Source: Pocillopora damicornis (Eukaryota). Taken from it: 64,000 nucleotides of DNA. The stretch is taken from positions 62,001-126,000 of the forward strand of contig NW_020844152.1 in the NCBI RefSeq assembly GCF_003704095.1. The letters run 5' to 3'. A program made the position numbers and the translations under genes. Below, in pieces: positions 27,069 to 53,800 of this stretch (within the stretch, counting starts at the first letter, position 1; every line of letters begins with the position of its first letter). The notes below the pieces were generated by a model. That model was given only the letters and a program-made list of their open reading frames with translations. It did not search any database and was not told the origin of the DNA.

Positions 27069-27540
27069 TCATAAACTCTTATGTTTGGTTATACTCAAAC
27101 TGTACACTTTAACTGTTGCCGAAAGTTGCAATGTAACCACTGTATTATAAATGTGTAATATTTTTTATTGACTCAGGAATTAGAGTGCCATGGACTCAAA
27201 TGTTATACAGTAATAGCCTATTTATTTCCTACATTTTGGAGTTAAGAAACTAAAACAGCTACTCCTTATCTACAGGAATGATATTTATGCTTGAAGGAAT
27301 AAGTTTGAAGAGAACCCCTTTAGGCACTAAGCCCTCTCACCTCTAGAACTGACCAACAAATAATTTCTTGTACCAAATCAAAAAGACAGCTGATTGGATA
27401 AGGAAAAAATGTCAATTTGATTAAAATTTCATCTGATAATTTAGGAGATCTATGCCAGAAAGTAAGAAGATTTGGCAGTAAAAGGGTGATTTCTACAACT
27501 TGTTGCTCTCTGTTTGGTGGAATCAAATATGTATTTTAAT

Positions 27541-27640
27541 AGGTAATTTAGTGTTAACAACTGAGTTGAAAACGTAAATTAGCCACTGTAATGGGTAAAA
27601 AAGCTGACGTTTCAAGCATTAGCCCTTTGTCAGAGCAATT
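27541..27640 (-). mobile_element. Copy of the hammerhead-bearing repeat family
   Basis: The reverse strand reads GCT-CTGACAAA-GGGC-TAAT-GCTT-GAAA-CGTC-AGC. Confidence 0.7.
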
Positions 27641-28440
27641 GGAGGAATTGTAGGTTGTGTGTGGGTTTATATGCAGAAAGTGGAGCTATGCCATTGGTGG
27701 GAATAGGGTGATGAGAAAATGTATGTATTTTATGTATGTATATGTATTTTAATACTCATCTTAAGAACAGAATTATAGCCTTTGGACAGTTCCTTATTTC
27801 ATCATCTTTAAATTAATTGTACTAGAAAAAGATAAGGAATATATAAGCAAAAGGATAATTTTGTATTGGAAATACTGTGAACCTCGCTATAGTGTGTGTT
27901 ATGTAAGATGCTGCATAACTGTCTACAACACCTTTATTGTCTTTGATTAAGGAGTTCCTTGGCTTCCAATGTGATAGTTGTTGATCATTTCGTTAACATT
28001 GGACAAGGTTGTTACAGACAACTATTTGAATTTCATTATCATGCAGTGTAAAGAAAATCGTCACTTTGTACTGTATAGAACATACATACAAAAGAGATCA
28101 TGTAAACTAGAAAATATTCATTTGGTTTAAAATGAATTTATGAGCAGAGAGAAATAAAGAAACACAACAAAGTTCTCTCTTGTTTGGATGAGAATGATGT
28201 ATTGCATTATACAAGCTATTTTTGTTATGTACTTAATATATTATTAGTCATGTTGGCAGATTTTCTATCAGCTAACAATTTAACAACCTTGTCCCCACCT
28301 CTCTTTTTTCCCTTCAGCTGGTACTGAGAAATGTTCTACCCTTATTGGCAAAGCTAACCTTGCCCCTCTCCTCTTCAAATTTACTTTTTTATGGTACACT
28401 TTTTGTTATCAGGTCTGCCTTAGACCAAAAGGGTGTGCGA

Positions 28441-38866: not shown

Positions 38867-41800
38867 TCATTGCTCATATTCTTTTAAAAGTCTTGCAGCA
38901 ATGACAATTCTTTGCACTTCACTTGTTCCTTCATAAATCTCTGTGATTCTTGCATCGCGATAATGCCTCTCAGCAGGCATATCAGTAACATAACCCATAC
39001 CGCCAAGGACTTGAATGCACTGGAGACAAAAACATCAAATGATCATCTTTGCTTCAGGTTGCAACCATCCAGAATTATGTGTACTATACAATTGGAGATT
39101 TTTTTTTCCAACGTAAACTGCACTTGTTGACATTTCAAATACCTCCCCAATGAAAACACACCAAAAAATAAGCATAGTGCAGAAAAGTTAGGCTGTTATT
39201 TAAGGAAACCATCACTAAGGGTATATAAGATTGACAAAAGACTTAATTGTGATGATGTTCATTACAAAACTTTTATGGGGATTAACCTTATGCTGAGAAT
39301 TTAATGCATTCTGTACTGAAAGGGTCTATGGAGTCAAACAAAATATGAAAAACAAGTGGTTTTGCTTTTTGTTTTGTCTGACAATACAACAAAACCCAGT
39401 GTGATTGAAGCTATGAATAAAAATCAATGTGAGCTAATACTTCAAGTTGAGTTATTAATTATTTAAAGGATATTGAAAAGTGTATGGAAAAAATAAAAAA
39501 TACCTGATGAGAAATGTAAGTAGCAGCTTCAGATGCTGCAAGTTTTGCCATTGCTGCCTCCTGAGAAACAATTTTCATGATTACAGTTACTGCAAGGTTG
39601 AACCATTGTGTTAATCCTTACCAGCATCAGACCATAAGGGTCCAAGGCTTAAATCTTTGTTTTTACCAAAAAACGATTTAAAAATTGACCCATCTTGATA
39701 TGTTTATCAAGCACACCTTAGTGAAGTTTTCTCCTGCATCTTTTAGCATTGCTGCTTTCCAAGTCAGAAGTCTAGCACTGTCTAACTTTACCTCCATATC
39801 AGCTAGCTTCATCTAGAGAATACAGTAATTAAAAAAAGACAGGAAATTTGTGTTACAGAGATGTACTAAATGTAATTCTGTCTGTTTAAATATTATAACT
39901 ACATCTATTGATACTCGAGTTTTAGTATGGCTATCAAAATGATCTGTTTTCCTTAAAATACCAGTAATTACCTGAATTCCCTGTAAACTTGCAATTGGCT
40001 GTCCAAAGGCACTCCTTTTTTGAGCATAGTCAATTGCACATTCTAATGCAGCCTAAAAAACCAGATAAGTTCTTTGATCAGTGCCAAGACAATTGCTTTA
40101 ATTACCGTATGTTACTTAATGTTATAAACTTTTCATGCCATACTATACAGACAGCAAATTCCAAGCTTAAAACTCTGATTGAGTCGTCAGCATCTTCATT
40201 TAATTAGTTACTCTATTACCTATCATGAAAACAAAAACTATGCATGCTAGGTAAGTGATATACATGTGCAGTATTATTACCTGGGCTATTCCTAATGCTT
40301 GCCCTGCAATACCAATACGACCTGCATCAAGTGTGGCCTAAAATTGAACACATACATGTCTAAAATGTGTATTGACTTATATATATATATATATATATAT
40401 AACACTTTCTGTGCAGAAAACTGTTTTAACCCCCATAACACCCTACTATAAGTATTCATATTATCACTGATTTCTCTATATTTCCTATGGTGATGATATG
40501 GAAAATTTGTTTGACAACCATGAGTTTCTTAAATTGGTGGTTATTTCCATTAATCTCAGGACATATACATTTAACATAAGGGTGATACTGCACGGAGAAG
40601 TTCGAAGCCAGTCACTCTTAGGGGTTAAAGGTAAAGAAATGGGTGGGAGTACATTCTTAGATTGCCAAATTTAAGAGCGAGTCCTAGAAAAAGGTTTGGT
40701 AAATATTTTACTGCCTTTGGTCTGTCTCTAGATATTTCAAGATAACTGAACAATAAGGGCACATACTTTTGGATCAAAAAAGTTCGTTGAATTTTCCATT
40801 ACAAATAAAATATTGTATCTTTTACATTAAATATTATATAAGCAAACAAAAATCAAATTCTTGAATTAGAAGAACATTCTAACCATTGCTATCTTGAATC
40901 CTGCTCCAAGTTCTCCAAGAAGATTTTCCTTTGGAATGAGGCAGTTTTCAAAAATAAGTAAACAAGTAGAAGAGGCTCTTATTCCCAACTTGTCCTCTTT
41001 CTTTCCAAGACTCAGCCCCTCAGTAGGTTTGGGTACAATGAATGCACTGATTCCCTTGTGTTTCTTTGATCTATCTGTTGTGGCAAACACTACTGCTGCT
41101 TCAGATTCATAACCATTAGTGATCCAGGCCTTTGTTCCATTTAAAACCCAATGATCTCCTTCTAAGTAGGCAGTGGTCTTAGCAGCACCAGCATCACTAC
41201 CATTGTCTGGAAATGCAATCAAGACAAAACTTAGTTATCTGAGTCCAACAAATTCCAAAGAGTTAATGGTTTGAACCCAGGGGTAACATGTGATACTGTA
41301 GTCTGGTCATCCAGGTGAGTGTAGTCCTGAAAAGGACTGTTGTTTGTAGTGGTGACTGACATTCAACAACCTGAGCAGTATTCATCATCAGAGTCAAGTA
41401 AGTGATTATGACTTCCACTCAGGTGGTCTACAGTTCCTCTCATATTAACCACACCCACCCGAACAATCATGTGATCCCAAACTATTACTTACCACTCACA
41501 AATAAATACTATACCATGGTGAGTGCCTATCTTGCTGTTCTAACCAGTTGTTGCTTCCCATGGAATATAACAATAAAGAGAGTTTTCTGAGAGTGTGAAA
41601 CATTTTGATTAAAGGAACATTACAGTTATTTCACACATTCATTAATTCTTAAAATAAATACCTGGTTCACTGAGAGCAAAACAGCCAACTCTTTCTCCAG
41701 AGCAGAAAGGTGTAATCCACTTCTTCTTTTGTTCCTCTGTCCCATATTTAAGAATAGGACCCAGATAAAGGGACTGAAAAATAACAAACCACAATTGATT

Positions 41801-43152
41801 TCCCTTTAGCTTTCATTAAAATACTGTGATACAATTCACCAGATGAAACAAGAATTCTAACTTAATAAAACTGTTAACACATTGTCAGTTATTCTAGTTG
41901 TGATGTGACTGTTACTAGTAATTTCCAAGGTTGTGATGTCAATGTGATAGTTCCCATCAATTTTATCCAACAAAAAAAAATTATAAACATTGCCAACTTG
42001 ATTAAAACCCCATCTCTCAATCCAGAGTAAATTGCACTCTTTGCATAATTATATAACCTATGGATGATATAACTGGCCCAAAAATACCTTGTTTTACACA
42101 TTACGTATCATACATACATTATTCACACTCATGATAACCCCTGTGGATGCACAGCCACGACTGATCTCCTCCATTGCTATAGAATACGCCAGATAATCCA
42201 GTCCTGACCCTCCTAATGATTCAGGAACTTCCATTGAGAGAAGACCAAGTTCCCCAATCTGTTTGACCTATGAAAGAGAGATTTAATGGTAAGTGGACAA
42301 ATCTTATTGCACTATTATTTTTAGAGCCATGGTTTCATATCTTATTTAAAGTTGGGCAGGAGAGAGGAGGGGATAGGAGTAAGGAAAGTGGGAGGGGGTG
42401 GGGGAGGGGGAGGGGAGAGGGAGTGTGGGGGGGGGAGGAATGATACTATGCAGAGTTTCCAATTGCCTGACTGAATACAAAAAATTAAAATATGGTACTA
42501 ATGTGGCAACAGTTTGGTGAGACATGTCCCTCCTACATACCTCTTCTTATGTACAATTTACATAATTGACCACTAATAAGTCTAATTATGTAACTCACGC
42601 AATCTGTTACGCAACCATCTCATGAGTTAAAACCAAGAAAATGTGCATTTTCATCCAAAGCAAAGTTCAAATTATGGTGGCAAAAGACAGATTTTCGCAT
42701 GAATTCTTCAAATAGTAGCCTCATACCTTTACGGTCTTTACTTAACGAGGTCTTCAAAGGAAAAAAATTTAAATTTCATTTCCGTGACGTATGGTGCAAT
42801 GCCAAACTACAGTTTGCATCGTACACCATTAAGAGTTGATGTTTAAAATTAAAATTGAATTTCCTTTATAAATTCAAGATAAAAAAATAGACATTTCAAA
42901 TAACTCTACCTGTTCTGTAGGGTATCTATGATCTTTATCCAGATTACCGGCAATGGGTATAAGTTCGTTGTCTGCAAAATCTCGACAAGTTTTTCTCAAC
43001 ATTTCATGCGTTTCGGGAAGTCGAGCAAGACTGGCCACATGTCTTCTCAGTGGTATACATTTATCAATTCTCGACCTCGGTAAAAGGCCGTAAAAAGAAC
43101 TTTTGGAAGAGATAAGAGAAGAGAACAGTTTTCGAGACATCTTCGTCGCCAT
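38867..43152 (-). CDS. ACADS: Short-chain acyl-CoA dehydrogenase, mitochondrial
   Basis: Nine exons. [93 protein letters not shown]; stop TGA 38869-38867. Confidence 0.95.
40379..40401. repeat. (AT)n microsatellite
   Basis: Perfect AT run. Confidence 0.9.
40426..40634. mobile_element. Degenerate TTAA-type MITE (third subfamily)
   Basis: TTAACCCCCATAACACCC ... CAGTCACTCTTAGGGGTTAAAGG; related to 56572-56768 and to 44430-44637 in reverse orientation. Confidence 0.65.
41296..41470 (-). mobile_element. Second hammerhead-bearing (Penelope-like) repeat, degenerate
   Basis: The reverse strand at 41396-41353 reads TGACT-CTGATGA-...-GAAT-GTC-AGTCA: 5-bp stem I, intact CUGAUGA, decayed GAAA. Confidence 0.55.
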
Positions 43153-43314
43153 CTTTGTTGACCTTTGGAACCAGGCCGTATAGGTATGTTATGCGTGGAT
43201 GTGATGTAAGAAACCATCATATGAAGTGCATTGAAGTTGTGTCTGTCTCCTTTCTCTTCCGATCCATTGCTTACTGCGTCGTCCAATAAGGTTTGCTGAG
43301 AATTAGGGAGCAGC

Positions 43315-45840
43315 ATGTTTAGCGGAAGATTTATTTCATCGTTTTCTGTTTTAATACCAACTGCTTCCTCGAATTCTAATGTTGCAAGAAGAAAATCATG
43401 GCTTCTTTTGGTACAATTCAACAACTATGCTAGCAGCGTCAAAAACAAAAGTCAAACAGGAAGTAGACGTTGCTGGAAGTGCAACAGTGAGATAAGATCA
43501 GGGGTAGAGTTCTTCTGCCCCTCTTGCAATATCATTCAAATGCCACCGAGGAAGGTGACTTATTTTGAGCTAATGGGGAGGTAATGAAATGTCAGCTGTT
43601 AATTCACATGTCATTCTTCCTTTCAGCCAATCACATTTTAGATAATGAAAGTGTAAAAGGTCAAAGGTGAGAATAAAACAAATATTCCCTAGGACTGGGA
43701 TACTGTGGGCTGAGAGAATTTTTGTGGCTCCACCAAAAATCTTGAAATTTTTTCTTTTTTAACAACTGAAAGTGAACAAAACGGTGCAGATGCATGGTGC
43801 ATCTGGGCTCCTAGCTGTCTTACTTAAAACTTGATACAGTACCTTGATGATGATTGTCTTGGTATGAATTGGTGAATGCCACAACAGACCCAGAATATCA
43901 TATGTTGTCAAGCAGGCATTTATAGGGAAGTGGTTAAAACTTCCCTTTCACAACTTTCAGAGAGGATAGAGAGATACAGGAGATATAAAAATGAATATCT
44001 CAATTTTGTGTCCCTTTTGTAAGCCTACTCAATACAATATAATGTGTGATCCTGGGCTTGTGCTTGAAATACTAACAAGTTATAATTATTTCTGTTGATG
44101 CAGTCCCACATCATTTGACATTGATACCAGGCAGCTGACCCAACGTTATAAAGAATTACAATGGAAACTACACCCTGATAAATTTAGTGATCTATCCAAG
44201 GTATTTTCAATGACTTTGACAAACAAAGCTGATCAAAAAACGTGTGACAAAATTTTTAGTTTCTAATTGAAATCAATGTGTAATTTATAATTATATCAAT
44301 TTACTTTGATTTCATCACAGAAAGAGCAAAGCTTATCTGAGGAACAATCATCTTTGGTAAATGAAGCTTACCAAACTCTTCTAAAGCCACTTACTAGAGG
44401 GCTTTATCTGGTACGTTCATGTGATGTATCAACCCTTTGACCCTAAGAGTGACTAACATCTAATTTCTCCTTACAGTATCACCCCTGAATTACACATTGA
44501 AATCATGAGAATAAAAGAAAATGATCAGGGACTAAAGCAGCTCTTGATTGTTATCCAGATTCTCCTTGTCACCTAAGGAAATGTACAGAGAACAGTATGG
44601 AGAATATGTATACTGATGTTAGGGTGTAAAGGGTTGAGTTCACTTGTCAACATACAATACCTTAACCCTTCTGCCTCCCCCCCCTCCCCCTCAAGATATA
44701 GGTATCAATTCACTTCATTGTCTGTCATACATTTCCAATAACTTTAGCTCTTTGAATATGGTTCTGTATAGAATCAAAGAAAATTACTTAATTTAAATTC
44801 AAATTTCTTGTTCTAGTTAAATTTAAATGGAATACCTATAACAGAAGATGAAGCCAGTTCTACTGACACAAAATTCTTGGCTCTAGTAATGGACAAATAT
44901 GAAGAAATTTCATCAAGTGAGAAAAAGTTAAAGGAAATCAAAAAAGAAAATAATGGTAAGGACTTTTGAGAAAAATGGAATAATGTAAGTCCATGACACT
45001 TCTTCAGTTTATCTCCAAAAGAGGCACTTGTCCCAGCCATCATGTGGTACAGTTACTTACGAACTTAATTTTTCATTTTTAGGCGACCTGGAAAAGTCTG
45101 TTAAAAAGGTTTCAAAGGCTTTTGAGAGAGGTAAATAAAGGTTTTGGGGGGATTTTAAATTATTTATCTCTCTGCAAATTAGACAGACTCAGTATTATTA
45201 TCAAGAATTCATCAGTAGAAAACGTTTTTTTCATTTGATTTTTGTCAATTTTGTCTGCTGAATTACTGAACAGTTAAGCACCATAAAGGATTATAGTACT
45301 TAGTGAACACATAACAAGTTCCTCAGCCAATCAGATACAGTTCTACTCTTTTGTGGCAGACATAACTGGATGTAGCTGACTGTGGGCCTCAAAGAAAACA
45401 AATGCTTGGCATTAATTTCGGTCTATCAATTAAGACTTCCTTCATCATGATGATAAAACAAGGTTAGGTCTGCATGGAGGAATCTGTATGCAAAAACTGT
45501 CCAAAGGACAAAAAATTAACTCAGTAAGTAAAGAATCTGACCACAAAATTAGAGGGCTTAGTTTCAAATTCTCACAGATGACTTGGATCTTCTCTTTTTC
45601 CCTCACTTTTGACAAATACTAAAGGGGTGTTACTTAAAGAAAAGATCAGAAAACTCGTATTCATATTTATGTTTATAGGCTTTGTTTAGGTGCTTATAGA
45701 AATGTCTGTTTGCCTTCAACTTTATCTCGTGCATCTTGTTATTTTTAGGAGACCTAGAGACAGCAAGGAAGGAGGTGGTGAAGCTTAAATATTTCTCTAA
45801 AATTGATGAGTTTATTAAAGACAGAGAAGGCTGGGATTGA
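43315..45840 (+). CDS. HSCB: Fe-S cluster co-chaperone HscB
   Basis: CWKC...CPSC zinc motif, J-domain LHPDKF, SSLVNEAYQTLLKPLTRGLYL, KLKYFSKI; six exons. Confidence 0.93.
44430..44637. mobile_element. TTAA-type MITE
   Basis: TCAACCCTTTGACCCTAAG ... TAGGGTGTAAAGGGTTGA terminal inverted repeats. Confidence 0.7.
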
Positions 45841-46621
45841 TACGACAAACAGAAAGAAATACCGAACAAGAACAGGCAGCTTGCCAAAAAGGAAATTCAA
45901 ACTGCAAACTGAAGAGAGACACTACAAAGGAGATTACTCTTGTAGAGTTGCTGTTCTCTAACGCAGTTTATCATCTAAAACTTTCCAAAGAGTGGAGAGG
46001 AGACAAGAGTGAGGATTCTCTCTGCGCTAGTTTTTTGATCGAAGTCAAACGGCTCAGGCATGAAATTTATTTTATAAAAGAAGTTCAAATATGAGGATAA
46101 AGATCCAAAAGAAACGTCAGTACTTTTGTGATCTAAGTTGTTGTTAAGACTATGCAAAAACCACTACTAAAAATCTCCCATACAATTCCACACAATAGAT
46201 AAACTGAAAGAGCATTTTGTAGTATGCTGTTGGTATAAATCACTCAAATGTCGTTTATCTTAACTACGGAGACGTTGAAAGGGAATATTGGATAGCCTTA
46301 TTTCCTTGTTATTTTATCATAGTACTTGAGTTATTAAAGAAGAGAGGTCGAAATGGGTATGAAATCTATCGCTGGTTAGCCACGTTTGTAGCCTCTGTAG
46401 GTTTATAGCAATATCCAGCGCGCGCAGTCCTAACACATTACCAATTCAAATAACTTTCCTGTTTTTAATGGGAGGCGTGTCAATCTCTTAAAGAGAAATA
46501 AAAAGCGAATACAAGGAAGTATTTGTAGATAAACATTTGTGAAAGCAGTTCCTAGATTGACTAACATTTTTGGGTCGTTTCTCAGACCCTAAGATTCATG
46601 CGCGCGGCATGATTGACAGCT

Positions 46622-46818
46622 GTAAGGCTGTAAGGCTGACGTTTGGAGCGTTAGCCCTTCGTCAGAGCAATTGACAAGGGGCTAACGCTCGAAACGTCAG
46701 CCGTTAAACTCTTTACGGTGGCCAATTTACGTTTTTAACTCAGTTGATGACACTAAATTATCACGTTATACTCTCCCACCGACGCATCACCCCAGTTTCT
46801 TTAGAAACTTACCCCCTT
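46622..46818 (+). mobile_element. Short retro-type insertion with a head-to-head pair of minimal hammerhead-like motifs and a 14-bp target-site duplication
   Basis: Flanked by CATGATTGACAGCT (46608-46621) and CATGACTGACAGCT (46819-46832); inverted repeat at 46635-46701. Confidence 0.75.
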
Positions 46819-46834
46819 CATGACTGACAGCTAA

Positions 46835-46849
46835 CCAATTATGACGTCA
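46835..46849 (+). promoter_or_regulatory. CCAAT box plus perfect CRE upstream of the EF-hand gene
   Basis: CCAAT at ~46835 and TGACGTCA at 46842-46849 in CpG-rich sequence ~90 bp before the first ATG. Confidence 0.5.
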
Positions 46850-46933
46850 GATGATTGTTTCGGTCGCGCGAGTTTTGGTGAGAAATGTATTTACTCAACG
46901 AAGATGTGAGTTTTATATGGTTATCGCCCTAAA

Positions 46934-49298
46934 ATGAGCATGGGTTGCGCTCCTAGTTATCCCATTACGAGAAGCCCCGTCGTTTATGAGCCAATCACGT
47001 ATTTTAATAGAACGGGTGAGTTCTATAGATCGGTTTAGGCGTGAATGTCGGCAAGTTACGTTCCAAGTTGCAAAGGAAAGAATATCGATTGCGGTAAAGT
47101 ATTTATGTACTTAAAAAAAAAGCGATCGCCAATCATTTTTTGCTTCGAACAGTACATTAGTGTAATGGGTTCAGCGAATGAAGAATCGTCATTTCATAGG
47201 GTTAACTTTTACTCCTCCGACAAAAAAGGTGTTTTCTTTTAACTAGCAACTGCCTCTCTATTTCTACATGTAATTCAGAGTCCATGATAGCTTTCATTGG
47301 GTATTTCCCACAACTCACATGGAGAAGAAAGTATCAAACTTTGTGAATGATAATAAATCAACATATTCCAAAACATGGAATTTTTTACTTTTTCTGATTC
47401 TTCCAGGAACAAGGAAATCACACGGCGAAAACGAGCTAAAAAATACGGAATTTCAATCAATTCAAGAGCAGTACTGGGGAAAACTTCTCATGGAACGAAG
47501 ATTATCAGCTATGAACAGGAAAAAATTTCAAGGTATGGTGTATTTTGTTTCATGATCGAATTGGCTCCAGGAGAATTCGACTCGTATTGACATCGAGCAC
47601 TTTTGTTTCATCTTAGCCCTTTGCATCTACTTGTTTTCAGAAATGGGTGAAAAAGATTTCAGATCGTTGATAGAAGAATTTCCAGAATTTAAAGAATCCG
47701 ACATATCGGACTTACGATTACAATTTCAGACGTTTGATTTAAACCAAGATGGAATAATTGATTTTAGAGAATTGTAAGTATCCAGACTATTTAATGTGTC
47801 GTAACATGAACTTACTTTATAATCGTTTGCGTGGGTCTTAAGTCCTTAAGTTCCTTTTTACTGAACACAGCCCCCTTACGTAAACCCCTAAAATCATGCA
47901 AACCAAGACAGAATAATTTATAAATTTTTCATCGCACATCGGTAGGCCTGCATCGTAAAACAAGGTGATTATGATATACAATTTAAAACCACGCCAACTC
48001 CAACTCCCAATGGAGAGGAAAATGGTTCGACTCAGCAGGAGATCGAGTCATTAGGATTGGTGTTGAATTTCAATTATCCTGTTAATGACTTTAATTATTA
48101 AAATAAAGAATCACGTTTATACCATTCTTGTCTGGAGCCCATTATGGGCTCCTGTTCTTGTACAATCGAGTTAACTGAGTTCGGGTTAGCTGTTAGTAAA
48201 TGACTGAAAAATGGGTTCAATTTCAAGGGAAATCGGATCTTGTTCGAATCAGCGGGATTCTACTGTATTTTCACCTATAATTAAGTACCCCTTTCAGTTC
48301 AAGTGTCCCTGACCGCGAGTACTGACCACAAATCTTCATAAGAAGAGACAACCAAAATTTTTCGCTTACCCTTACGCCCCCTCCTCGCCCTCCTCCGCCA
48401 CCCTTAGGGCCTAGAAATTATTCCTGACCACTTTATTGGACAGCAAAGAAAAACCACTTTTCGAGTCAACCCCACAGTAAACACTAATTCAGTACTGGTA
48501 TCTTTCATTAGAACGCAGGTCCTCGATGACCTAGGGGATAAGTCTGAGCCTGCCGTACGGGAACAGTATTTCAGTGACATTGATAAAGATGGATCCGGTG
48601 CTATTGATTTTGAGGAGTTCTTAACGGTAAGAAACAAACTTTAGATACAACGGCTGAGTTTTGTCAAGTAGCATGGTCCCTTCTTACTCAAAGATGGTTT
48701 CAATATGGAGGAAGGGGGGGGGAGTTGGGGCCCTTTTTAATAATCGACGACTGAAGATATGTCGTTTTGATAGTCGACGGTAAAGTGCTCGGAATAGTGG
48801 TCTCACCTCATCCATCTGGGCCAAGTTGTCCATAGAACAGATAAAGCTGTCCAACAGCTAAATCACTATCCACCGGGTAAATGTTAACAAAACGTACTAC
48901 GATATCCTTCGTATAGAGATTTTTCAAGTGGATGGCGTCACTCATCCTCCACCCTTCGAACAATCGGGGCCTGGTATCGATTTTCTTGCTCATATAGGGT
49001 TCAATAGGTAAGGACTCATTGTGACGAGACTCAATTGAACATGCAGTAAACGTCTCTCACGGTAATCAAACGTTTTTCAGCGGCACAGAAACGGCTTAGA
49101 GAAAGATTTAATAATCAATTTAAGGATCAAAATGTTTTCTTTTTGCAGCTCATTTATCAGCTGCGAAAGACCAATGCAGATTTTCTCCGGTCAAGCGAGT
49201 TGGGTCAGATAGGAAGCTTGTGCAAACGTGGCACAGACAATATTCAAAGAGTCAGAAAACTTAGTGTGGCTAAGCAAATGCTCACGGGGCTGTTTTAG
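46934..49298 (+). CDS. Two-EF-hand calcium-binding protein (AIF1/EFHD-like core) with alternative N-terminal exons
   Basis: Exons 46934(46940)-47015 or 47045-47093, 47408-47532, 47641-47773, 48512-48626, 49149-49298. EF loops DLNQDGIIDFRE and DKDGSGAIDFEE. The core from Met 47643 is secure; the upstream exons are inferred. Confidence 0.8.
48816..48974. mobile_element. Degenerate MITE
   Basis: CTGGGCCAAGTTGTCC ... CGAACAATCGGGGCCTG termini with internal CTATCCA/TGGAT motifs. Confidence 0.5.
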
Positions 49299-50835: not shown

Positions 50836-53800
50836 TTAGAAATTCACTGCTTCTGTAAAGGAATACCTTAAGAGTACTAAGAGTACTTAATAAATAAAAC
50901 TTCCTGAAAAACACTTTTTAAATATCTGTTCTAAATAACTCTTCCTTGACTTTTGCTTTGTTTTTAAAAAATTTCATCAACACCCTTGTGGAGGAATGGT
51001 CATGGAAAAAGTTTGTTGAATTTTTTTATATTTAAATACCAGTTCTCACATTGAACAACACCACCACAATGTTAGTTTGTTTCCTTTGAAATGGTATCAA
51101 ATAAATGCCTTGTTGCAGCTTGACAAGCTGCAAGTATTCTCAATAAAATGGTTAGTAGGATTTGACAAAATAATTTTTCATTTTTAATAAAGAGAAATAA
51201 CTCCGTAGCTACTCCTGAGAATAAAAGATGAACTATTGTAAAAGTGGTTGTCAGTCTCTATCCTTGAACATTTTCCTTCCTCTTATATTTTTGTTTAACT
51301 CTGGTGTTTGCCTAATCTAGCCAACTATTGATTTTAAGTTCCCTTCTTGAATAACTTAATTTTCTTAAGTGTTTAAAGACTCTAATTGTCTAAGGCTGGC
51401 TGACCCCTTTCCCCATTACCCCTCAAGAGATGTGGTTGTGCCCAATTATCCCCAAGGGGTGCAATGGAAACATTTCAAACTATCCAAAATGCTAGTAATA
51501 AAGTAGCCTTTTACATGCAATTGAGAATGTTTATATTTTTGAATGTGAAAGACTTGTTGAAGATCAGATTTGAAAAAACAAGCAATGTTTGTTAATTAAC
51601 AATTTTCTGCTGAGTTAATCCTTTGGAAGAGCACTTGAATACTGTCACTTATACCTGACAGCTCTTGAATAACTTTTTCAGATGGGTGTTGTTTACTCAT
51701 GAGATCATCCAAGTTCTGAAGTCCTGTTTTCACAGTGTTTACTGCCTTCATGTAGGCATCTTCAATCTATGATAAAATTAAAAAAGAACCTTTTTTTGTT
51801 GTCCGCTGACAATAAAAACTAGTAAATGACCCTGACTATTGAACACCTCTGCTGGAAACTCTCAAATTTAAAGCAATCCAACTCAAATCAACTTCCAACT
51901 GAATTCCAACTGAATTTCCAACTGAATTAAATATCTCAGCTTAGGATGTAACTTTCAATAAAAACCATAAAAATAACATACTGGAATACACTATATTTCT
52001 GTGAGAGGATATTTCTGTAAGGTTGGTTTTCTTCTGTGTGTCTTAGGCTTTCAATAAATTTAGTTTTAAACTGGTTTTACATTCTGAACCTTTCATTCTC
52101 TACAAACACTGAGAGGTGCTCTCTGTTCTCACATTTTTGAACAATTAGTTTGTGTCTCACCAATACATTAAATGGTCAATTTTCTAGCTTAGAGACAGTA
52201 AAAAATGTATGAAAACTGGCAAACTTTCCCTCCTTTTTGTCATTTTACAATAAAATTAATATCTTAAATGAGCTAATATTTCATCAAATAACACAATCCT
52301 ACCTTGGATGACTCATCTTTCAACACATCAGGATCCCTGCAAAATCTTTTTGGTTCTGGCTTTTTAAAGTAAAAATAATACTACATTAAATTCCATCTTC
52401 TTCCACAGCTAAACAATAAAATTCAGTTTTATATATGAAACCTAAATACCTGCTTTCGACCAGATCTGCTCTGTGGCTGTTGCATATCTCTGATCTGTGT
52501 CACTTCACCATTAACATGTGGTTGACCTTCTGTTTTGCTTGGTTCTTTCACAATCACAAGTGCTTCACCTGAATTTACAACTCTAACAATGTCATTAATA
52601 TTCCATTGCTGAGAAATACAGAACACTTGATGCAAGTTCTGAGCAGGGTTTGAATGAGGAATGTTGTCTAAAGGATTGCTCACATTGCCAACAGTGCTGA
52701 CTTCTCTTGAAGTAATGTTAATATGATTTGACCCCACACCAGGGGCAACTCTATGATTTGCATCAAAATTTCCTGCTGCTGCAGCTGGAATGTGTGAGTT
52801 TAACAATGGAGGAGGTCCTGAGCTATTCAAAGCAATCTTGTTGTTTAGAATTGCACCATTCACAATTCGTGGAGGTCGTAGTAAGTCTTCCATGGCCTTG
52901 TAGAGCACTATAGGAGGTGTAGCCCGCAGGTTGTGATTAGAGTAATCAACTGGTAAGAGAGCCTCATGCGACATATCCTTTAACATTCCTGACAGACAGT
53001 TTAGTCCAGCAGCTTGTGACCTGTACCAAACTCCACTTGTAGCAAAATCACGGTTTGGTATTTGAAAAAATGCAGAGCAGGATGGGTTTCGTCTTTGAAG
53101 GAATAACTTCAATGCTGCAACAGGGCACTGTAAACTTCCAGGTACACTAAACATTTTCCTCCCAATGCCCTTATATTTTTTACTCCTCAACTGATTGGAT
53201 GATGACTCACTTAGTTTACAAGCTGCATATTCAAGTCCAGTGGTCTCATCAATGTGAAATTCAAACATGTCAGGTGTCAAATCACGCAAGTCATCTCTAG
53301 AGGTAATCCCAAAATTGATTCCCACAGCCAGAAACACCAATCTCTGCAGAGATTTTGGAGTCTTGATTCCCACAACTCCAGTGGCCCACAGTTTACGGAT
53401 CTCTTCCACATTTAAAGCTGAAGCGGTAGAACCACATTCAGAGGAATCAAGGTACTCTTTCTGGGCTGCTTCCAGGTCATGCAATGTCGCATTAGCTTTG
53501 CTAAATTCTGGAGAGTGAGTGAGGCTGTAGGACTTGCAATATGGTTCACTCTTAAGATGATGATCAATGGCTGAGCGTATGATTCTCAAGGAACTGGCCC
53601 TCTTTGTACCACCATGTTTTAGGTGTGATTCCTTGTAAAACTCGGACAACCAGTTGCTAATCTCTCTTGGTTTCCAATCCTCAAATTCATCCTCCATTCC
53701 CTTGCACTTTAACCACTCTGTGAACAAAGACAAAAACATTGATTTGACCCTTTTATTCAAGATCTAAATACAAATCCTCTTCACTGCCTGACATACTGTT

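Follow-up and report, generated by a model that had tools for sequence, protein, structure and literature searches.

A probable head-to-head pair of hammerhead-bearing Penelope-like element 3' ends upstream of an EF-hand gene in Pocillopora damicornis

We analysed a short insertion next to an EF-hand gene in a 64,000-nt stretch of coral DNA, hereafter the window. The insertion very probably consists of two short 3'-end copies (pLTR with a minimal hammerhead, plus tail) of an abundant Penelope-like element (PLE), likely of Neptune type. The two copies lie head to head within a 14-bp target-site duplication (TSD), likely arose in one integration event and have been decaying since. Direct evidence for this reading comes from family membership, the linkage of longer copies to RT and GIY-YIG sequence, the family-wide duplications of 12-17 bp, the short and long 3' ends of each inverted copy and the rare variants common to both arms. 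The window locus alone matters little: the element class is known, its ribozyme motif is published, and decayed copies of it number many hundreds. The family, in turn, is a usable fossil record of PLE integration, a poorly understood step. In that record the 3' ends are fixed at two places, the stagger measures 12-17 bp, both arms appear to come from a single template, and the 5' ends lie at the ribozyme edge and not at its cut site, in agreement with an in vitro PLE study (PMC11167929). The features of the insertion and of the adjoining promoter are as follows.

46608..46621, plus strand: left TSD copy, 14 bp, containing TGATTGACAG, an exact Pbx/Prep 'DECA' consensus
46620..46638, plus strand: 8-nt tandem duplication of ~2.4 units at the left junction
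46632..46673, minus strand: short inverted arm (copy L001), family positions -4..+37, where position 1 is the first base of hammerhead stem I
46635..46668, minus strand: full minimal hammerhead outline with one private core change, G12C
46672..46821, plus strand: long arm, family positions +5..+151, comprising a 5'-cut hammerhead, the remaining pLTR end and the tail
46672..46701, plus strand: hammerhead remnant truncated by the junction, which took away C3 and the 5' strand of stem I; private changes G8A and A9.1G
46766..46821, plus strand: PLE 'tail' of ~55 nt on a single arm only; its boundary is approximate, as the family has two 3'-end classes
46819..46832, plus strand: right TSD copy, overlapped by the last CAT of the tail and adjoining CCAAT
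46835..46849, plus strand: host promoter motifs CCAAT and ATTATGACGT(CA)
46835..46839, plus strand: CCAAT, left intact downstream of the insertion
46842..46849, plus strand: TGACGTCA, likewise left intact
46868..47015, plus strand: first exon of the EF-hand gene, with the 5'-most RNA contig base at 46868 and the likely start codon at 46940

A preliminary description of this DNA had reported an inverted repeat with a minimal-hammerhead remnant on each strand, bracketed by a direct repeat, and both were recovered. The arms of the inverted repeat (46634-46664 and 46672-46702) are 31 nt long, 90% complementary and separated by a 7-nt spacer. As DNA they form a hairpin of -31.4 kcal/mol (z -9.7), a value that none of 200 shuffles equalled, and the 20-nt core motif has three matches in the window against 0.00 expected from 100 shuffles. 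The direct repeat lies where it had been placed, at 46608-46621 and 46819-46832; its copies are identical at 13 of 14 positions and 211 bp apart. The long arm is 85% identical to a real long copy and differs from the family majority at 14 of 147 positions, three of them subfamily sites. The two arms meet at a -4/+5 junction and overlap by 2 nt. The short arm stops at family position +37, compared with +88..+104 in 56 of 70 inverted copies, and lacks the distal ~55-60 nt. We infer that it was shortened by deletion or an early stop, plus slippage.

With the insertion as query, the source genome returned 2888 first-look candidates, of which 40 were scored. The intact 33-nt motif occurs exactly 474 times in the genome and its reversed control 0 times, and the tight head-to-head junction is present at at least 156 loci. 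We fetched 165 loci of this genome and placed them all on the coordinates of a real long copy, in which position 1 is the base that opens stem I. Removal of duplicates and edge-cut copies left 138 elements: 70 simple head-to-head pairs, 61 single arms and seven others. This sample is enriched in inverted copies, since two of its source searches select for them. Exact-match counts along the element were 157 at the ORF end, 220 just upstream of the motif, 474 at the motif and 916 at the pLTR end; the patterns were of unequal length, the motif pattern being longer and CpG-rich, and both arms of inverted copies were counted. These counts suggest a step at the 5' edge of the motif.

Some individual loci have features of their own. 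The window holds a second copy of the same family at 27540-27722 on the minus strand, a single arm spanning -82..+95 with a decayed hammerhead and the core 20-mer at 27604-27623. One locus (L047, 1234-1647) has about seven tandem 19-nt repeats of the antisense hammerhead 5' half at its inversion junction, as if the polymerase had re-primed repeatedly. Another (L062, 1480-2462, minus strand) is the 3' end of a different PLE, with a weak GIY-YIG match and its own distinct minimal hammerhead outline. Immediately after it comes a fragment of the window-copy family that stops within the hammerhead.

The copies that reach further 5' identify the element. They enter the end of a GIY-YIG-type endonuclease frame with a C-X4-C-X2-C linker (Pfam E 0.01, below the curated cut-off), and translated linked copies show RT motifs on the 5' side of the endonuclease, among them DKG and YIDD (for nomenclature, see PMC8557442). 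Locus L093 preserves the order RT motifs, endonuclease, hammerhead and tail, the stop codon of its GIY-YIG frame lying ~93 nt before the hammerhead. When loci were picked by coding sequence, a hammerhead followed downstream on the same strand in 12 of 19 and was absent from seven. The latter include L094, which gave no hammerhead match; its single 432-aa frame has two Pfam matches, to RVT_1 (E 1.1e-6) and to GIY-YIG (E 0.0026), that narrowly miss their curated cut-offs. No full-length copy with direct pLTRs at both ends was found among the fetched loci, which had 1.5-kb flanks and in many cases assembly gaps.

Between RT and EN, the CX2-5CxxC zinc-finger linker takes the form C-X4-C-X2-C in P0001 and L094. 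Such a linker is given for Neptune and Nematis in PMC8557442. An identical hammerhead with a pLTR location is listed for Acropora digitifera in Fig S3 of PMC4209133, and Table S1 types this element as Neptune, with motifs ~3 kb apart. Going by the published label and the linker motif, the coral element is likely a PLE of Neptune rather than Nematis type. The linked Penelope RT/GIY-YIG coding sequence that the preliminary description had proposed looking for is thus present in the family (12 of 19 loci, L093 among the copies that show it). Family linkage and the published motif match bear out its retro-mobilised minimal type I hammerhead of the Penelope kind. Its separate non-autonomous ribozyme element found no support, the window copy being the 3' end of an RT/GIY-YIG-encoding PLE with long copies in the genome.

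We compared the ends of the insertions across copies. Whether copies were short or long, their 3' ends clustered near either +95 or +150. Of the 70 head-to-head copies, 56 carried one 3' end of each class, and long inverted copies whose junctions are arbitrary follow this rule too. Allowing one mismatch, duplications of at least 10 bp flanked 47 of these 56 short-plus-long copies versus 55 of 3080 mismatched flank pairs used as controls, and duplications of at least 12 bp flanked 40 of 56 versus 3 of 3080, with a mode of 14. The 14-mer in the window is therefore a typical TSD, because the duplications of the family peak at 14 bp, and the direct repeat is a true target-site duplication, as previously proposed. 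Among short single-arm copies, only 4 of 18 had a duplication of at least 10 bp.

The junctions between arms are recurrent. The commonest, an arm from -4 joined to an arm from +5, was found in 26 of 70 head-to-head copies and in both subfamilies, the cut hammerhead lying on the long arm in 17 and on the short arm in nine. A hand count gave the 7-nt spacer in 29 of the first 50 listed of 156 junction loci. Such over-representation of one junction is not predicted by random truncation. We also examined 29 loci chosen by the tail alone (the best of 1227 candidates): 18 start at -6..+6, six at +7..+25 and five beyond -30. None of the 29 has its 5' end at the ribozyme cut site, which suggests that the inserted RNAs were likely uncleaved. 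None of the papers retrieved by our searches on this subject, which covered largely open-access literature, described a recurrent junction at the hammerhead 5' edge.

The two arms of a copy resemble each other more than they resemble other copies. The overlap sufficed for a comparison in 53 copies. Divergence between arms was 7.1% inside a copy and 12.0% from one copy to another, the partner was the nearest arm in 21 of 53, and at the seven subfamily sites 44-52 of the 53 copies had the same base in both arms. Rare variants were common to the partner arm in 21 of 141 cases, compared with a mean of 2.0 (maximum 10) in 2000 permutations. Gene conversion could also account for variants common to both arms. 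Together with the occurrence of the junction in both polarities and both subfamilies, the likeness within copies is better explained by arms copied from one template at integration than by one amplified palindromic master.

We propose that the element endonuclease would have cut the target with a stagger of ~14 bp and that uncleaved element RNA would have been reverse-transcribed from two internal start sites. Priming of the second arm may have come from the opposite target strand, or the first cDNA may have folded back on itself. The arms would then have been closed by 2-nt microhomology just 5' of the hammerhead core, and the left arm would have lost its distal part later. In PMC11167929, the RT of another PLE started at two sites in vitro and both target strands were extended, while self-priming is argued for PLEs in PMC3846280; our data fit two-strand priming and self-priming and separate neither from the other. 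An inverted 5'-truncated copy with a one-sided tail is described for PLEs in PMC3846280 and PMC8557442.

At each of its 34 positions, the majority sequence of 58 arms not chosen by motif is that of an intact minimal hammerhead, in line with the CUGANGA/GAAA consensus expected in the preliminary description. It has CUGANGA, an unpaired 9.1, a stem II starting from G-C, GAAA, a palindromic 15-16, NUH and a short stem I. Individually, 29 of the 58 arms keep the core. Because positions 1-34 form one master motif without subfamily variation, no covariation can show in the stems. Motif positions are kept at 0.79-0.97, lowest at CpG and not better than the tail, in a sample that was partly picked by tail similarity and so favours the tail. 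This gives no sign of selection after insertion, and selection on the ribozyme at that stage was rejected.

The window copy has no intact core with stems on either arm: G12C affects the minus arm, and C3 and the 5' strand of stem I are missing from the plus arm. The core changes listed in the preliminary description (G12C on the minus arm, U3/A8 with a disrupted stem I on the plus arm) are thus present, but not all of them arose as mutations. U3 and the missing stem I there stem from the inversion junction, which is common to many copies, and not from point mutation. U3-A8 is a covariant core published in PMC4209133 and so need not inactivate the ribozyme by itself, which leaves the loss of stem I as the relevant damage. 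Since the cores lie on opposite strands, one transcript holds one core and its antisense and cannot form a dimer. In predicted folds of a transcript of the insertion, stems I and II had a pairing probability of 0.0 on either strand, and the whole insert folded at -82.3 kcal/mol. Read-through RNA is thus predicted to fold into a plain hairpin, and neither core is predicted to self-cleave. We agree, as a prediction, with the earlier suggestion that these copies are probably inactive. The pairing of the cores, previously read as a dimer arrangement, appears instead to be a by-product of the known inverted-pLTR structure.

Model searches and folds of intact copies were also considered. An Infernal-type hammerhead search, proposed at the outset, returned nothing of the kind: an Rfam scan of 45500-48000 at E<=10 gave six matches, none of them a hammerhead and none near its gathering score. 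In an intact single copy an alternative helix is preferred over stem I, whose predicted probability is 0.03-0.16. Such a weak stem I would fit published accounts in which motifs of this kind cleave poorly or depend on protein. In PMC4209133, low dimer cleavage was measured and minimal hammerheads are proposed to act as dimers. Within -60..+155 of one intact copy, the search for extra loop II pairing gave two 5-bp candidates and none of at least 6 bp. At L093, a predicted 6-bp helix between CUGACG of the core and CGUCAG competes with the hammerhead fold of the intact motif and could be an off state.

The insertion lies in the proximal promoter of the EF-hand gene, immediately upstream of the CCAAT/CRE, as first described. 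RNA contig X20 (depth 5.1) covers 46868-47014 and is joined to 47406-47507 over a GT..AG intron, placing the end of the insertion ~35-36 bp upstream of the 5'-most spliced RNA contig base, although contigs cannot fix the start site. The first exons read in frame towards later exons with EF-hand matches. We found seven distant orthologous loci, five of which reach the promoter; ATTATGACGT is kept at the matching place in all five, and the element, DECA and CCAAT are absent from that place in all five. The spliced contig and this conserved motif both support a promoter position. The duplication copied a Pbx/Prep-type decamer (the 'DECA' motif of PMC6023610) without disturbing the proximal motifs, and we predict that the core promoter downstream was likewise spared. 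On position alone, the insertion could affect regulation of the EF-hand gene. A random-primed RNA contig, X17 (depth 3.3), enters the 3' end of the insertion; it may be DNA and was not counted as evidence of transcription.

Occupancy of the site was assessed in DNA runs. The filled site was present in five of five runs examined, under three organism labels, with contigs crossing the left junction in X1, X3, X8 and X10 and the right junction in X1, X3, X8 and X14. The preliminary description had suggested searching for an empty-site allele, and no base-exact empty site emerged from DNA runs or metagenome contigs. No joint skipping the insertion was among the 15 listed of 84 joints from four DNA runs, and the exact empty-site pattern had 0 matches in metagenome contigs. 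In the distant orthologs, which lack the element, the sequences are too diverged for a single copy of the 14-mer to be visible.

The window contains further features around and beyond the EF-hand gene. The gene itself spans 46940-48644 on the plus strand from its likely start at 46940 and encodes an MGC N-terminus, which we take to resemble a lipidation signal. The orthologs either lack an upstream ATG or have it out of frame. RNA contig 9 of run X15 covers 47113-47530, over intron 1 and exon 2, and continues for ~586 letters that were not placed on 47531-48750; it may be an alternative isoform or a chimeric contig. An intron of the gene holds another short dispersed repeat (48166-48256) that is matched by many unrelated contigs. 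Elsewhere, 52429-53763 on the minus strand is a 444-codon intronless frame with a DUF3504 match (E 4e-11), DUF3504 genes being, we presume, derived from tyrosine-recombinase transposons. Within 39800-43600, a minus-strand gene for acyl-CoA dehydrogenase (Pfam E 3.5e-24) and a plus-strand frame lie head to head. The latter presumably encodes an HscB co-chaperone, and that exon has no Pfam match.

We weighed three other accounts of the insertion, one of which is compatible with the main reading and differs from it in the template. Short copies, that of the window included, might mostly derive from a ~155-nt RNA starting at the hammerhead 5' edge, made from a pLTR-internal promoter and mobilised in a SINE-like manner by PLE protein acting in trans. 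The 18 of 29 tail-chosen loci that start at -6..+6, with none at the cut site, and the rise of the exact-match counts from the ORF end to the pLTR end both speak for such an RNA. However, the same pile-up would result if RT paused at the structured hammerhead or if fold-back were frequent there, and the counts come from patterns of unequal length and include both arms of inverted copies. We therefore regard this account as possible but on balance unlikely. More tentative, and in our view rather unlikely, is a combined proposal in which the coral PLE makes RNA starting exactly at the hammerhead 5' edge, this uncleaved ~155-nt RNA is the main template of the family and is copied from both nicked target strands, and the palindromes are two-ended integration products. 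If that were true, the ribozyme would mark a transcript start or a protein-binding site and not a cut.

It is very improbable that the palindrome is a self-propagating, non-autonomous, retrozyme-like element whose cores work as a dimer. The tight head-to-head junction at at least 156 loci, many with the same spacer, would fit such an element, as would the proposal in PMC4209133 that minimal hammerheads act as dimers, with low dimer cleavage. Yet the cores lie on opposite strands, the read-through RNA is predicted to be a hairpin without hammerhead stems, and no head-to-tail array of whole units was found among the 138 elements. Within copies, moreover, one arm varies along with the other, the short-plus-long rule extends to long inverted copies whose junctions are arbitrary, and the junction in both polarities and subfamilies points to repeated de novo formation. 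Equally improbable, in our view, is co-option of the insertion for regulating the EF-hand gene, whether by a duplicated Pbx/Prep-type site, a DNA hairpin or other means. Its position ~35 bp upstream of the 5'-most RNA contig base, the filled site in all five DNA runs, the exact DECA consensus in the left duplication and the right duplication adjoining CCAAT would all suit co-option. Against this, the copy has decayed like others (14 differences in 147 positions and a deleted arm), DECA and CCAAT are absent at the matching place in five of five distant orthologs, and any insertion that is old and fixed should be found in all five samples.

The motif, the element class and the insertion structure have already been published, and the insertion is not a new ribozyme element. 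The closest known motif is the Neptune minimal hammerhead of Acropora digitifera: in PMC4209133 its stem I, core, unpaired 9.1, stem II, loop and cleavage triplet are the same as in our family motif, the GAAA column being printed apart in the supplement text, and it likewise lies in the pLTR of an RT/EN element. Its flanks differ at several positions, and the window copy is mutated on both arms. The paper also describes dual motifs on opposite strands and mostly single, truncated copies, but its opposite-strand pairs are 100-700 bp apart, whereas the window cores abut. EN+ PLE units, as described in PMC3846280 and PMC8557442, share with the window copy a head-to-head inverted copy, a tail at one end only, a palindromic junction and a TSD. 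In contrast to these, the coral tail is ~55 nt and not 30-40, the duplication is 12-17 bp versus 8-10 bp in rotifers, one junction recurs and the window copy has no coding sequence.

The Poseidon PLE of Anolis, studied in vitro, belongs to a different clade, and its ORF start overlaps the hammerhead. In PMC11167929, two internal RT starts delimit its tail, both strands are cleaved and extended, and uncleaved RNA is the main template with no reads ending at the cut site; the coral family likewise has two classes of 3' end and 0 of 29 5' ends at that site. Coral non-LTR retrozymes, as presented in PMC7229834, are similar in having a type I hammerhead, a short non-coding unit, long duplications and a coral host. 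Unlike the coral family, in which no head-to-tail array of whole units was present among the 138 elements, they are arranged as head-to-tail tandem units of 220-240 bp, and their hammerheads are canonical and cleave efficiently. The window copy, by comparison, carries a minimal motif in a dispersed head-to-head insertion.
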